From Treponemataceae bacterium (GTDB taxonomy: Bacteria; Spirochaetota; Spirochaetia; Treponematales; Rectinemataceae), in the NCBI GenBank assembly GCA_963677895.2, contig CAXXGJ010000038.1, forward strand, positions 64,001 through 128,000: 64,000 nucleotides of DNA, given 5' to 3'. Each line of letters starts with the position of its first letter. Within the stretch, counting starts at the first letter, position 1. Position numbers: made by a program. Shown one piece after another: positions 34,801 to 40,800 of the stretch.

Positions 34801-37800
34801 CGCCCATGGGGATCGTGACGGGAACCGGCGCGATCTTGAACTTGGCTTTTATATCCTCAAGGCATGCGCCGAAGGACGCGCGATCCTCATCCATCCTGGT
34901 TATGAATACCATGCGCGGCTTGGAACGGCTGTCCAGATTTCTCCAGAGCTTGATGGTCTCGATCTGGACGCCCGATCTGGCGTCGATCAGGAGGAGGGCA
35001 CTCTCGCAAGCCCTGAATGCGAGAATGACCTCGCCTACGAAATCCGAGGATCCGGGCGTGTCGATGAAGTTGATCTTGGTGTCTCTGACGACGCAATGCG
35101 TCAGCGTTGAGCGAACTGATATCTTGCGCGCGATTTCGTCCTCACCGAAATCGCTGACAGTCTTGCCGGATTCGATGGTTTCTGGCTTGGATATCACTCC
35201 GCCCTGAAAGAGAATGTGTTCGAGCAGCGTTGTCTTGCCGGTACTCCCGTGGCCGGCTATGGCGATGTTTCTGATCTGATCGGTTGCGAACGACATAGTG
35301 ACTCCTTGCAGGGTGGCAGATATGGTAATCCCTATTTATTTATAAGGAAACTCAAATATTATAAGTCATATTTCCCGGCTGTCAACAGTCGTGTTTTATA
35401 AAAACTATATTGACAATGGCCGCTGATTCGGTCTAGCGTACCCCATAGCAAAAAACGGGACGTAGCCTAGGGGCTAAGGCGTCTGCTTTGGGAGCAGAAG
35501 ATCGGAGGTTCAAATCCTCTCGTCCCGACTACGTACCTTTAAAGTCGATTGGGATCATAGCTCAACTGGATAGAGCAACTGCCTTCTAAGCAGTAGGTCG
35601 GGGGTTCGAGCCCCTCTGGTCCCATCTTTCCCTCCTCCTTTTTGATACACATCCATCCGCCGATGAGCTTCTCCCGCATTACCAAACCCGGGGTTCAATC
35701 TATACAGTGTAATCAATATGTTTCGCTAAAATTTTATTGTAAAGTTGATTGACAATTCAATATCCCGAATATAGTCTATCCATGCTTTTTATATCGATCC
35801 GCCTTGGCGTGAGAATTGATCGTCAAATCTTGATTCATGGCATCGCGTCGATGTAATCAACGCAGATTCTAATTTTCCGAAAAAGAGGGAGTATGCAGGA
35901 AAACGAAAAAAAAGGAATCAGCCGCAGGGAGTTCGTAAAGCTTGTCGGAACCGGAGCGGCGGTTGTGGCCGGAGCCACGATAGTTCAGCCCTTGGCCGCG
36001 GATACCGGCAAAGTCGCTGATGCGAAAACCGTTAAGCCGACGCCCGCCGATCTGCCCAGGAAATGGGATCTGGAGGCCGATGTCGTGGTGCTAGGTGCCG
36101 GTGCCGTCGGACTTCCGGCCGCGATCAGGGCCGCCAAAGCCGGCGCTTCCGTCATCATCGTCGAAGCGAACTATGATATCGGCGGTCACGCTATCATCTC
36201 TGGCGGTAACGTTCCCCTTGGCGGCGGAACCAGCTTCCAGAAGAAATATGGCATAAATGACGATGCCGAAACGCTGTTCCGCGATCTTACGGACTGGTCG
36301 GTGGTGGAGGTGAGCGGCATGCCCGATTACCGCTACAACGACAGGGCCGTGCAGCGGGCCTTGGCCGACAATGAAGCCCAGACCTTCGAGTTCCTCCTCG
36401 CCCAGGGCGTCCCCTTTGTGGACAAAAGCCCCGACAATTCCGGCGGACATGCCGTGGGTGTATCCGCGAAACGCGAGCACCATTGCGTATGGACCAAGGG
36501 ACAGAACGCCGAGAGTCCAGCCGGAGCCGGCGGCACGACCCTCATGCGCGCCCTCGAAGACAGCGCCAGGAAAGCGGGCGTGAAGTTCCTGCTCAACTAC
36601 CACATGAACACCATCTACCGCGAACATCCGGATTCCGGCAGGGTATTGGGCATCCAGGCCAACTATACCCCGACCCTTCTTCCGGGATCCCTGTCCCCGC
36701 TTCCGAGTTTCAGGTCCGACGGCAATCTGGGCCTGGACCTCGCCGAAGTGACGATCAAAGCCAAGAAAGCCGTCATCATCGGTACCGGCGGAAGCACGGG
36801 CCATGTCAATTTCCGCAGGATGTTCGATTCGAGGCTGACCGAGGAAATGCCGTTGGCCGGAGGCGAATATTCGCCCCAGGACGCATCGGGCGAGCTCGCC
36901 GCCATGGCTATCGGCGCGACCCTCTGGGGAACCGCGAACCAGACCTTAGACAGGAACGGCGCTCTCAGAAAACGCCCGATCATCGGCACCAGGACCAATT
37001 ATGTCGGATGGAAGAAAGAATCCCCTCTCTTCCCGAAAGTGAAAGCCACGGGACTGAACGTCCGCAGCTGGCAGGACGCCATCATCGTCAATCAGGTAGG
37101 CAAGCGCTTCTACAATGAGATGGAAGACGGCTATCCGAACGGAACGACAGAGGGATACCTGAAGCCGTACGTCCAGGGCGATTGGCGCAACGCGCAGAAC
37201 GCCAAATTTGCCCCGATGAACTATCCTGACGCCGCTCTCGCCATCAACGAGGGCTCCACGGCTCCGGATTACTCCGCTGGTCCCCAGTGGGCCATCTTCG
37301 ACGCGGCGGCGGTGAAGCGCGAAAAGTGGGTCATAGACGGAACCAGCGTTCATCCCGACTATTTCTTCAGCGCGCCCACCCTTGCCGAACTCGCTGCCAA
37401 GATCGAAGCCTGCCCCTATCAGAAAGTGAAGATGCCCGCGGGTAACCTCGAGGCGACGGTCGCCGAATACAATAAGGCGGTGGACCTCGGCGTGGACGAG
37501 GCTTTCGACAAGCCGAAGCCCCAGTACAAGATAGTAGAGGGACCTTTCTACGCGGCCTGGGCCACGATCACCGTACACGATACCTATGCCGGCCTGAGAA
37601 TCAACCAGGAATGCCAGGTCATGAACATGGACGGCGAGGTGATTCCCGGCCTGTACTGCGGCGGCGAATCCGCGGCCGGATGCAGCCAGCACGGCCTGGC
37701 CCGCTGCCTTACCCAAGGGTATATCGCGGGAGCCGTTGCCGCAAAAGAGTCTGTATAAATAAGTAGCTTGTTTTCCATGGCCGACGGCGGGGGAAGGAAA

Positions 37801-40800
37801 CGGACAGTCTTCTTTTCCTCGCCGTTGACGCATGAATGCGGCGGACTTTCCGAGTCCGCCGAAGCATTTCTTCATTTTCGGGAGTCATAGATGTTTTTCA
37901 ATGAAAAAACAATGCGGAACTGCGCGATTGCCGTGGCCGTTTCGCTCTCGGCCGTAATGTTCGGCTATGCTTCATCGGACATACGATCGGATACGGGATT
38001 CGTTTACGATTCCGGCATCCAGTCGATTCAGGTCCAGACCACGCCGACCACGGTACAGCCGGCCGACGCCACGAGCGGGGCCAGCGAGGCGGCGGAAGAG
38101 CCCGCTTCGGATGCCGTTTCGAGCGCCACCGATGAAAACGCCGTCAAGGATTCAGCTTATTGCCTGAAATGCCACGGTCCGTTCGAGAAACTCGCGGAGA
38201 GAACGGCGGATTATGTGACGGAGTGGGATGAAAAAGCGAATCCCCATGTATATGTGCCGCATGAATCGAAGACTATCGTGGATTGCGTGGAGTGCCATAC
38301 TCCGCATGATGTACCGTTCAAGGCCGATGAGGGCGCAGCCAAGCCGAATGTCAATTACTGCTATTCCTGCCATCACGCCGAGACGCTCGTCAACTGTAAT
38401 ACCTGCCATAACGAATAGGCGATAAAATTGAATAGCGGGGAAGCGGCTCGATGCCTTCCGCTTTTTCCGCTATTCTCTTTGGCTTTCTTCCGCTAGTTTA
38501 TCCAGTTCTTCCTGCGTAGGCTCAGCCTTGGAAGGGTTTTCCGGTGACGGAGAGACTTGAGGGGCCGCCTCGGTTTTCTTGTCTTCAGCCTTCTGGTTGT
38601 CGGAATCCTGTACAGCCGCGGTTATATCCATCTGCCTCATGAAATCGTCTTTGACGGCGGTGATTTCCTTGAATATCTTTTTAGCCTGCGCGTAATAATG
38701 ACCAAGTTTCCTGAAAAAAGCCGGCAGATCATCGGGACGTATGACGATCATGATCAGGAGAACGATAATGGCTAATTCCGAAAAACCTATGCCGAACATC
38801 ATTTTTCTCCGAATTTGAAAATCTTCGCGATCAGAAGAGCGAGAAAATAGAGGACGGTCAGGGGAATAGCGACCCCCAGCTGGCTTATGAAATCGGGGGG
38901 CGTGATGATCGCGGACGCGATGAATATCGCCACTATTATGAAACGGCTCGCCTTTAGTACCGATTTGCGTTTCAAAATATTCAGCATGAGAAGAACTTCC
39001 ATGAGGAGCGGCGTCTGGAGAGCGAGCACGGACCAGAGAATGAAGGAGAACACATAGAAGATATTCGCCTGATAATTGAGAAGATAACCGACGTTTTTTG
39101 GAATGAAGTAGGGATTCGTCAGGAAGCTGATGGCGAGAGGGACGATCCTGAAGTAGGCGAGATAAGCCCCGAACACGATCAGGACGAGACTGGAGAATAA
39201 AGTCCAGAGGATCACCCGCTGATGGCGTTTTTCCACTCCCGGAAAGACGAAACGCAGAAGGTTGAAAATATGGACGGGAGACGAAAGGATAAGGCCGGCA
39301 TAGACGGCGATCTTCATCTGTGAGGAGAAACCTTCGATGATAGTCGTCACCACGAGCTTGCTTTCCACGGCGCTGGATACGGCGTTGAACTGCCTGGTGA
39401 ATATGCCGATTATTTTATCCGAAAAAACAAACGACGCGATGGCGCATGCGAGAAAAGAACCCATGGATATGAATATGAGCTTGCGCAGTTCCCTTACATG
39501 CTCGATGAAGGGCATAACCTTGCCGGGATTTTTCACGTCTGCTGTCATAGTCTTCTCGAGGTCAGAGGTTTCAGACTTTTGAATCTTTCTTGCCTTCATC
39601 TTTTCCGGAACCTGTCTCCTGCGCGCTTTCCCCGTCTTTCATCGCCTTGGAGAATTCCTTCTTGGCTTCGCCGAGCGAGCGGGCGAACTTGGGAATGGCG
39701 CTGGCCCCGAAAAGCACCAATATGACCGCCACGATTACGATTATTTCCGTCGTTCCTATCATGATAAAACTCCTTACAATGAAACAGAAAATGCATCGAT
39801 CCGGTGTCGTCCCGCGAAATCGACATGAACCGCGGACCTCGCCGAAGACAGTACATTTCATACTTATCGGTAGGCTATGTCAACACGTATTCGACGTCTT
39901 TTTATCCGTTGGCGATGCTCATCTGCACGAGCGCGTCGCAGCGTTCGTTGTCGGGTACGCCGGCGTGGCCTTCCACCCAATGGAATTCCGCCCGGCTCGC
40001 GGCGACGAGAGCGTCCAGCTGTTCCCATAATTCCCTGTTTTTCACGGGCTTCTTGTCGGCGGTTTTCCAGCCGTTGCGCTTCCAGCCCGACATCCACTTC
40101 AAAACGCCGTTGCGGACATACTGGGAATCGGTAAAGACATGCACGGGAGCTTCGGCCCAGGAAGTTCCCTGGCGTTGGCCTTCCGTCTTGCGCGCCACGA
40201 TGAAGCGAAGCGCTTCGATGACGGCGCGCAACTCCATTCGGTTGTTGGTCGTGTCAGGTTCGCCGCCGCTATCCTCGCGGAGCCTGTCGCCGTAGCGCAT
40301 GACATAGGCCCAGGCCCCAGGTCCGGGATTTCCATGGCATCCGCCGTCGGTGTGAATGATGATTTCCTGCATCGGCGACACTATGGCAGAAAAATCCTCA
40401 TCGGGCAATCCGGGCAGGTGAAAAGTATTGTCTTTCAGAGTCGGGAACAGTAAACTCTTTGGATATGTTTAAAGAATTCAGATCCATAATACCGTATCTA
40501 AAAAAATACAAGTGGAACTATAGTATCGGCATAATATTCCTTTTGATCGTGGATGCCGCGCAGGTCCTCATTCCGCGTTTCGTCAAAAAAGCGGTGGATA
40601 TCATCGCCGTCGGCAATTTCAAAGTATCCGCCATCATCGCTCCGGCGCTCTGGATGATCGGCATCGCCGCGATCATCTCGCTTGGAAGATTTTTCTGGCG
40701 GTACTTCATCATCGGAGCCTCGCGGAAAATCGAGACCGAAATGCGCGACAAGCTTTTCGGTCATTTCATGGAAATGTCGGCGGGGTTCTATCAGGCCAAC

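Follow-up and report, generated by a model that had tools for sequence, protein, structure and literature searches.

A probable split flavocytochrome c with candidate ApbE flavinylation motifs on its tetrahaem cytochrome in a Rectinemataceae spirochaete

The window, a stretch of 64,000 nucleotides from a Treponemataceae bacterium (family Rectinemataceae), encodes a Tat-exported flavoprotein and, directly downstream, an exported tetrahaem c-type cytochrome with two ApbE-type motifs. By its layout, this gene pair is a split flavocytochrome c of the Mrd/Mcc type, an already known kind. We propose, with a probability of roughly 0.55, that the cytochrome half of this periplasmic system is tagged with FMN by ApbE and that a Listeria-type electron chain feeds it as a sink for NADH.

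Organization and distribution of the locus

The first-pass annotation had placed a Tat-exported flavoprotein ahead of a tetrahaem cytochrome that faces the tat genes, and ORF calling and profile searches confirm this layout (Table 1). The tat genes are convergent with the cytochrome gene, lie in the order tatA–tatC–tatB and include the sole tatC match of the genome in a profile search. The suggested link between the pair and the tat genes holds in part: tatACB does adjoin the pair here, but this is partly incidental, as no more than 5 of the 11 carriers have tatC next to the pair. The annotation had also counted two Tat substrates in the genome, which a regex scan reproduces (the flavoprotein and a split-Soret-like dihaem cytochrome), and the reported ApbE and ResBC correspond to ApbE and ResB/CcsA-type genes that are indeed present, with ApbE encoded at G000:C2:182532-183548.

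Table 1. Features of the locus, with positions counted along the window
Feature	Position	Strand	Basis or remark
Probable -35 box, TTGACA	35749..35754	+	about 145 bases 5' of the flavoprotein start
Tat-exported flavoprotein gene	35893..37758	+	621 aa; ORF calling
Long stem-loop between flavoprotein and cytochrome genes	37775..37830	+	RNA folding
Tetrahaem c-type cytochrome gene	37891..38418	+	175 aa; PF14537
Motif 1, DATSGAS (cytochrome residues 59-65)	38065..38085	+	strict ApbE consensus D-x-x-[ST]-G-A-[ST]
Motif 2, DAVSSAT (cytochrome residues 74-80)	38110..38130	+	Ser at the glycine position
tatB	38470..38802	-	TIGR01410, E 2.5e-10, below cut-off
tatC	38799..39599	-	TIGR00945, over cut-off
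tatA	39571..39762	-	TIGR01411, over cut-off

The 132 nt between the flavoprotein and cytochrome genes fold at -56.5 kcal/mol (RNA folding of the native sequence alone), and the stem-loop is a possible attenuator or mRNA stabiliser. The TTGACA hexamer recurs 86–172 bases upstream in 8 of the 12 upstream stretches compared; the promoter scan did not list it at this site. An upstream TGTNAN7TNACA palindrome, a pattern we take to be a GlnR/TnrA box, was dropped as a candidate, being kept only in genome G050 (2 of the 12 stretches). Database look-ups placed the two proteins in generic tetrahaem and FAD-protein clusters.

Of the 69 family genomes, the 11 that encode the flavoprotein are also those that encode the cytochrome, a count that excludes a cytochrome match in G014, which is a different, nine-haem protein. 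The genes are adjacent in 10 of these carriers, and in the eleventh they are split at a contig end. Among 80 metagenome orthologues of the flavoprotein, 64 had no partner cytochrome visible alongside (13 with short flanks). A search for fused flavoprotein–cytochrome forms longer than 1087 aa returned none, which is weak as evidence. Since ApbE is found in 62 of the 69 family genomes, its co-occurrence with the pair says nothing, and that of TatC (44/69) and CcsA (55/69) is likewise uninformative. Twelve Treponemataceae genomes encode a 44–46% identical enzyme with a C-terminal DxxSGAT, and the three such Treponema relatives scanned carry an FMN_bind domain at the C-terminus.

The tetrahaem cytochrome and its N-terminal arm

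The ORF, the motifs and a predicted model bear out the earlier description of an exported tetrahaem cytochrome that bears DATSGAS and DAVSSAT on its flexible N-terminal arm. The protein consists of a signal peptide, a disordered arm (residues 28–80, nearly devoid of secondary structure and with pLDDT under 50) and a haem domain with CXXCH at residues 91, 132, 157 and 169. Four further histidines accompany the CXXCH motifs, and all eight histidines are invariant in 60 aligned homologues, which is consistent with bis-His haem ligation. No PF04205 FMN_bind domain, which ApbE substrates usually have but can do without, was found on the cytochrome in a profile search. A structure search with the model gave no match at E 0.001 or better, its weak rows all being flavocytochrome c3, and a PDB sequence search yielded weak NrfA rows alone. 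With a signal-like N-terminus, a disordered arm, and ApbE and EetB encoded in the genome, the cytochrome offers the accessible sites expected of an ApbE substrate. It had been taken for one of two c-type cytochromes, which is probably wrong: two ORFs have at least two CXXCH, and a lipoprotein (G000:C2:64548-66023) has a single CXXCH, kept unchanged at all 18 of its loci, so that the genome probably encodes three.

At least one arm motif is present in all 63 close four-haem homologues (3.0 expected), which together hold 112 copies against 3.1 expected; the motif appears in only 3 of 136 distant homologues, many of which have Ser/Thr/Ala/Pro-rich tethers. Excerpts of PMC12052999 give the ApbE consensus as D-x-x-[ST]-G-A-[ST] and report that seven residues suffice for ApbE and that a Gly-to-Ala change merely halves labelling. 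This strict form is met by the first motif of our cytochrome and not by the second; it occurs in 21 of the 63 homologues and the relaxed form in all of them. Across 131 motif-like copies the glycine position holds Gly in 33, Ala in 65 and Ser in 33, and several copies end in Pro-Ser. Within motif 1, D59, A60, T61 and S62 are conserved in 92–98% of 60 rows, compared with about 30% for the flanks, and within motif 2 the conservation reaches 97% at S77 and 100% at A79. In 54 of the 63 homologues, 15–19 residues separate the start of the last motif from haem 1. In a quick tree the motif-bearing haem domains cluster (4 changes vs 55 when shuffled), with 9 motif-less rows inside the motif clade; the G032 cytochrome has a motif that lacks the acidic first residue.

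Low sequence complexity was rejected as a source of the motifs: shuffles of query residues 30–90 give two loose motifs with p=0.0004, the distant tethers are motif-poor, and 46 of 51 exported proteins with similar arms have no motif. Among the 3030 called genes, none but that of the cytochrome has two loose motifs. Judged from sequence, the arm motifs are not due to chance.

The same motif is found on other proteins. Of 30 Ndh2 loci in the family, 29 have it in the outer loop of the protein (46 copies vs 1.0 expected). It also occurs in the Ndh2 of Acetoanaerobium and Enterococcus, and on the arm of the invariant-CXXCH lipoprotein in 15 of 18 loci. The apparent sites of RnfD (DALSTAT) and an NqrB-like protein (DVVASAT) of this genome likewise have no glycine. 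The loop of Listeria Ndh2 gave no match to the motif with its acidic residue; Listeria PplA has two motif matches, EVVSGAT being one of them, and is flavinylated at two sites (PMC9973259).

These patterns also bear on a different and, in our view, rather unlikely reading, in which the motifs are a lineage-wide tag of other meaning (O-glycosylation or another modification, a protease site or a docking peptide) and the pair works as a plain Mrd/Mcc-type system that draws its electrons from NapH-like or DUF4405 membrane proteins. In 16 of 30 loci the same motif forms the end of a TPR-like exported protein that shows no sign of redox function, most motif copies have no glycine, and the arms around the motifs are rich in Ala, Ser and Thr, like the regions where bacterial O-glycans are usually attached. 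The genome also encodes two NapH-like proteins as well as a cytochrome b of the DUF4405 type, and motif-less cytochromes accompany the same enzyme in G671 and in a Desulfovibrio record, as this reading would allow. It accords poorly, however, with the motif-free state of most exported arms, with the recurrence of the motif on Firmicutes Ndh2 encoded beside apbE, and with the enrichment of the strict form itself (22 copies vs 0.2 expected), and such a spirochaete sequon is absent among the literature matches listed. The haem-plus-FMN carrier postulated by the first-pass annotation is well supported as an idea by conservation and clade restriction, and by comparison with the outer loop of Ndh2, the lipoprotein cytochrome and the fusion to FMN_bind in Treponema. 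Flavin attachment itself is predicted, and two thirds of the homologues have no strict glycine.

Electron supply and proposed mechanism

All but one of the eight components of the Listeria chain have a match in the genome (Ndh2, FmnB, DmkB, EetA, EetB, FmnA and PplA). The Ndh2 match has a membrane domain and is 38% identical to Listeria Ndh2 over 655 columns, and the PplA match is weak (24%, E 4e-7); one carrier, G034, has no Ndh2 match. For DmkA, a MenA-type prenyltransferase, two Enterococcus menA proteins found no match in the genome, and an MqnP-like enzyme, present in all 11 carriers and in 42 of the 69 family genomes, may stand in for it. Searches of the genome, which is 93% complete, yielded neither MqnA/D, MqnC and MenG nor HemB or a DmkA match, so the supply of quinone and haem is putative. 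No NapC/NirT protein scored over cut-off in the 69 family genomes. Four FMN_bind-fused flavoprotein genes are present in the genome (two of them 96% identical, one with a fumarate-reductase signature), and the locus is therefore not the sole sign of such a metabolism.

In the mechanism we favour, the flavoprotein would load FAD, fold and exit by Tat, and the cytochrome would exit by Sec and receive its four haems from ResB/CcsA. ApbE would then attach FMN to the closing Ser/Thr (Ser65, Thr80) in one or both of the arm motifs. Electrons from NADH would pass through Ndh2-DoxX and a prenylquinone to flavinylated carriers, for example the Ndh2 outer loop, the PplA-like protein, NqrC or RnfG. By swinging, the FMN arm would take the place of the missing NapC/CymA and hand electrons to the four haems, from which they would reach the FAD of the flavoprotein and a periplasmic organic acceptor. 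Such a route would most likely drain NADH and lift the fermentative ATP yield rather than pump ions.

The periplasmic organic-acceptor respiration suggested at first is upheld in that an acceptor is likely reduced. Energy conservation is another matter: the Ndh2–quinone–periplasm route should move no net charge and NapC/NirT is missing as described, so energy-conserving respiration is not established, and the more probable role of the system is to take up electrons from fermentation in an electroneutral way. A truly respiratory version, with an Nqr-like (BCDEF) or Rnf donor that couples acceptor reduction to Na+ or H+ pumping, appears improbable to us. The genome does contain RnfCDGEAB and NqrB, C, D, E and F-like genes with FMN_bind subunits, and the ubiquity of the MqnP-like prenyltransferase in carriers suits this version, but NqrA gave no match over cut-off and tapping NqrC or RnfG would skip the pumping step. 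The part of PMC8837199 available also describes an Ndh2 route in L. plantarum that gains ATP by substrate-level phosphorylation only.

More tentatively, the chain could form a domain-free relay, in which bare seven-residue ApbE tags on the disordered arms of Ndh2, two c-type cytochromes and other periplasmic proteins pass electrons through swinging FMNs. Gram-positive flavin export would here be grafted onto a haem-wired flavoenzyme with NapC/CymA unneeded, and in evolutionary terms the cytochrome would stand between two ways of wiring one enzyme subfamily, by cytochrome alone and by FMN_bind alone.

The flavoprotein and its likely acceptor

The flavoprotein carries the signal SRREFVK with a weak Tat-signal match and a PF00890 FAD_binding_2 domain (E 3e-37), and has neither FMN_bind nor a haem domain nor CXXCH. 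It is a member of the fumarate reductase/flavocytochrome c superfamily by sequence, and to that extent the label "fumarate-reductase-like" stands. It fell below all NCBIfam cut-offs in a profile search. The fumarate reductase label proper was rejected on the TIGR01813 score (146 bits vs a cut-off of 285) and on the Fcc3 catalytic residues, which are not conserved: the protein has His562-Asp563, the NRLG arginine is absent and the Arg402 region aligns poorly. The KstD label was rejected as well, the KstD/KstD4 family scores being 72–78 bits against cut-offs of 758–793. The acceptor is probably not fumarate and probably another alpha,beta-unsaturated carbonyl.

We consider it improbable that the arm is flavinylated and the enzyme is a dehydrogenase like KstD/TcuA, oxidising a periplasmic organic compound and sending electrons inward via haems and FMN to quinone or Rnf: 3-ketosteroid-delta4-dehydrogenase is its top individual match in the PDB by both sequence and fold, and it lacks the catalytic arginines of Fcc3, yet the fold matches to KstD4, Fcc3 and UrdA (20–24% identity) are nearly tied in score, and no terminal acceptor for the electrons was identified. 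As established for Fcc3, PF14537-type tetrahaem chains with bis-His ligation have low potentials and feed reductases. Most characterised exported members are reductases in the portion of the preprint by Little et al. that is available.

Comparison with known systems

If the proposed sink operates, Rectinema-like spirochaetes, described as obligate fermenters in the accessible text of PMC6052044, would be fermenters with recourse to external organic electron sinks. Flavinylation and c-type cytochromes have been described as alternatives in the wiring of periplasmic reductases, and here a soluble protein of 175 residues is predicted to have both, its flavin being carried by a bare flexible tag. 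The cytochrome would lend itself easily to asking if the glycine or a folded domain is required at natural ApbE sites; it also bears on how flavin-based export chains draw electrons from the quinone pool, and the locus on what a widespread uncharacterised PF00890 subfamily reduces. Titles and abstract openings searched, mostly in non-subscription literature, contained no flavin-tagged tetrahaem cytochrome and no such spirochaete chain; the gene-cluster tables of PMC8238504 may list such proteins. In the available part of that paper, the sole haem-plus-FMN protein is a multi-FMN RnfG from Christensenellales that also has a multihaem domain.

As in Mrd/Mcc, as far as the accessible descriptions go, a Tat-exported haem-free FAD protein is followed by a Sec-exported tetrahaem cytochrome, with an intergenic hairpin; here the PF00890 protein without CXXCH and the adjacent, co-oriented cytochrome travel together, and we infer that the cytochrome passes electrons to the flavoprotein. 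Unlike the system here, Mrd/Mcc is not reported to bear flavin tags in those descriptions, and no NapC-type donor was found here. The enzyme also belongs to a subfamily separate from Mrd, with H-D-T-Y-A-G-L and no NRLG arginine. Shewanella Fcc3 (FccA) shares the FAD fold and the PF14537 tetrahaem domain but is fused, Sec-exported and fed by CymA. The positions of its His505, Arg402 and Arg544, whose roles we partly presume, are here Asp, probably Gly, and absent, respectively.

The Listeria flavin-based EET system (Ndh2, DmkA/B, EetA/B, FmnA/B, PplA) is matched in seven of its eight components, but the genes here are scattered, MqnP/UbiD/UbiX are found instead of DmkA, the host is diderm and a c-type cytochrome lies downstream. 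In FMN_red proteins, flavinylated sites have been demonstrated on an unstructured extension (PMC10979944, in the part available), whereas modification is predicted here; there the FMN is tethered into the protein's own flavin pocket, and the cytochrome has no such pocket. In Listeria FrdA and Shewanella UrdA an ApbE site likewise wires a PF00890 enzyme to the membrane, but that site lies in a folded FMN_bind domain that replaces the cytochrome, whereas the motifs here are bare and sit on the cytochrome. The swapping of cytochrome and FMN modules between lineages, described in the accessible part of Meheust 2021 (PMC8238504), is mirrored by the present pair and its Treponema relatives.

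Locus organization and gene products

The window carries a Tat flavoprotein gene, a tetrahaem cytochrome gene and, facing both, tatA, tatC and tatB, as the first-pass annotation described. The association with tat holds in the window and is not a general rule, tatC lying beside the pair in five of 11 carriers and tatA alone in a sixth. All eight cytochrome histidines (four in CXXCH, four others) are invariant in 60 aligned homologues, named as Rectinemataceae or Spirochaetales, a pattern that fits four bis-His haems. DATSGAS and DAVSSAT lie inside residues 28-80, a region predicted to be disordered. 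The cytochrome had been counted as one of two c-type cytochromes in the genome; there are probably three, since another exported protein, the Oxidored_molyb lipoprotein, has a single CXXCH invariant at 18/18 loci.

Features of the locus and of related genes (G000, the window's own genome; G030, a compared genome; C, contigs; L, stretches of DNA around loci, with coordinates within the stretch; bare positions refer to the window)
Feature	Location	Strand	Remarks
tRNA-Pro, tRNA-Arg	35456-35626		Immediately upstream of flavoprotein gene
Flavoprotein, 621 aa	35893-37758	+	Twin-arginine signal, PF00890 domain
Cytochrome, 175 aa	37891-38418	+	Four CXXCH, PF14537 domain
[LIVM]-x-Q stretch	38029-38037		Cytochrome residues 47-49
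Partner cytochrome of G030	L039:7569-8357		Six CXXCH; additional dihaem module between motif and tetrahaem domain
Ndh2-DoxX	G000:C2:253524-255533 (L264:9527-11533)	-	Adjoins polyprenyl synthase; repeated flavinylation-like outer-loop motifs across family and two Firmicutes
Oxidored_molyb lipoprotein	G000:C2:64548-66023 (L017:6551-8023)	-	CVSCH; beside transporter permease and solute-binding protein
TPR-like exported protein	G000:C22:23577-25106 (L019:7580-9106)	-	DATSGATE-stop end after long Ala/Thr/Pro tail
Nitroreductase-family protein, exported	G000:C6:272124-272774		DAVTSAT; candidate ApbE substrate
Flavodoxin-like lipoprotein	G000:C6:319414-320112		DVVSSPS; candidate ApbE substrate
Two double-FMN_bind flavoprotein genes	G000:C10:687-2897 and C16:4045-6078		96% identical; short contigs, RraA-like gene beside each
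UbiD, MqnP-like, UbiX genes	G000:C25:53220-55451 (L021)		Without MqnA/D, MqnC or MenG
NqrB, C, D, E, F-like cluster	G000:C12:84937-89707 (L022)		No NqrA above cut-off in whole genome
Split-Soret-like dihaem cytochrome	G000:C25:180156-182817 (L015)		Tat-exported; directly upstream of resB and ccsA

Conservation of the arm motifs

The relaxed motif [DE]-x-x-[ST]-[GSA]-A-[ST] occurs within the 60 residues before haem 1 in all 63 four-haem close homologues, the query included, with 112 copies against 3.1 expected in composition-preserving shuffles. The two motif blocks are 65-100% conserved and their flanks about 30%; among 3030 called genes, the query cytochrome alone has two copies. Of 136 cytochromes that share the fold but are less closely related, among which long Ser/Thr/Ala/Pro tethers are common, three bear the motif (1.5 expected). 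Motif-bearing haem domains cluster together in a quick tree, nine motif-less rows falling within the clade. The arm motifs are real. The [LIVM]-x-Q stretch, which follows a variable region and precedes the first motif in 45/63 homologues, is possibly a second processing site; its Gln reaches 92% in the alignment.

According to a review, the ApbE consensus is D-x-x-[ST]-G-A-[ST], these seven residues are enough, and labelling is halved by Gly-to-Ala and little affected by Asp-to-Ala (PMC12052999). Only 21/63 close homologues have this strict form, which counts against an ApbE-type reading. Across 131 copies, the glycine position is occupied by Gly 33 times, by Ala 65 times and by Ser 33 times. 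The RnfD and NqrB-like proteins of the genome likewise have no glycine at the apparent flavinylation site. Modification at sites on an unstructured extension has been demonstrated for FMN_red proteins (PMC10979944), and ApbE of spirochaetes is active, with some species specificity (PMC4436053). We put the probability that at least one arm site of the cytochrome is flavinylated at roughly three in four.

The motif is neither restricted to cytochromes nor a general arm sequon, because it recurs on an Ndh2 loop, a lipoprotein and a TPR tail and is absent from 46/51 exported proteins with comparable arms. In Ndh2-DoxX, the loop between membrane helices bears it at 29/30 family loci (46 copies, 1.0 expected); the sole miss is the window's own genome, where near-matches have no acidic residue. 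It recurs in Ndh2 of Acetoanaerobium and Enterococcus, and Listeria Ndh2 has no strict match. The monohaem lipoprotein, a probable c-type cytochrome with a flavin tag, has the arm motif at 15/18 loci. Carriers are mostly redox proteins; the TPR-like protein, with C-terminal motifs at 16/30 loci and matches in 65/69 family genomes, is a counterexample.

Distribution of the gene pair

Flavoprotein and cytochrome are present in the same 11/69 family genomes, adjacent in ten; in the other, G034, a contig end separates them. A search of 400 further genomes from the phylum gave no match to the cytochrome at E 1e-12; G511, from another family, has the pair, motifs included. Relatives keep the pair in different neighbourhoods, which suggests that it moves.

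The enzyme subfamily ranges more widely than the gene pair and shows three wirings. Among the best 80 of 223 metagenome loci, nine have a motif-less cytochrome, as do G671 and a Desulfovibrio record; seven, none below 81% identity with the query, have a motif-bearing one; and in 64 no neighbouring cytochrome was seen. In the third wiring, a fused C-terminal DxxSGAT occurs in 12 Treponemataceae genomes (T. parvum, T. maltophilum and others), with an FMN_bind domain in 3/3 scanned.

Proposed electron route

The flavoprotein falls below every NCBIfam cut-off, and its fold matches those of KstD4, Fcc3 and UrdA nearly equally (20-24% identity). Since Asp563 takes the place of Fcc3 His505 and the enzyme lacks the NRLG arginine, fumarate is an unlikely substrate. 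Candidates for the active site are the invariant residues H562, D563, Q599, H600, R354, R361, Y370 and W373.

We infer every step of the most likely chain: NADH would reduce prenylquinone at Ndh2, periplasm-facing FMNs would accept the electrons, the FMN arm of the cytochrome would gather them, and the haems would pass them to the flavoprotein FAD for reduction of an organic acceptor. Because the quinol would be oxidised on the side where the acceptor is reduced, the two reactions cancel and the route should be electroneutral; the L. plantarum Ndh2 route is reported to give benefit through substrate-level phosphorylation only (PMC8837199). Organic-acceptor reduction, proposed in the first-pass annotation, stays in the model, and "external electron sink" therefore describes it better than "respiration". 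Such metabolism would not depend on this locus alone, given four FMN_bind-fused PF00890 proteins in the genome, one with an HHTMGG and NRLGG signature and two 96% identical, which may be strain variants.

On the donor side, NapC/NirT gave nothing over cut-off in the 69 family genomes. The genome has matches to the Listeria components Ndh2 (38%), FmnB, DmkB (adjoining ndh2), EetA, EetB, FmnA and, weakly, PplA, with none to DmkA. It also encodes Rnf, two NapH-like proteins, a DUF4405 cytochrome b and the UbiD/MqnP/UbiX cluster, possibly for quinone salvage. MqnA/D, MqnC, MenG and HemB were not found in this 93% complete genome, which may mean that it relies on scavenged haem and quinone head groups. 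The lack of a HemB match contrasts with the CcsA-type genes, which occur in 55/69 family genomes. The MqnP-like gene is present in 11/11 carriers but also 42/69 genomes family-wide, and Ndh2 in 10/11 but 51/69, counts that come from related, non-independent genomes.

Relation to known systems

The flavin-tag-like tetrahaem cytochrome with its flavoprotein is real, conserved and cheaply testable. The gene pair itself is of known type, the same two-gene unit as Mrd/Mcc as described in PMC4427408. Among the papers listed by our literature search, no title or abstract opening described bare flavin tags on a tetrahaem cytochrome arm. To the swapping of cytochrome and FMN modules described in PMC8238504, the present finding would add a hybrid state, haem plus FMN tags. 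The parts of that source bearing on haem and FMN in one chain hold one prediction, Christensenellales RnfG, in which FMN sits in folded domains, whereas the query cytochrome would carry bare tags on its arm.
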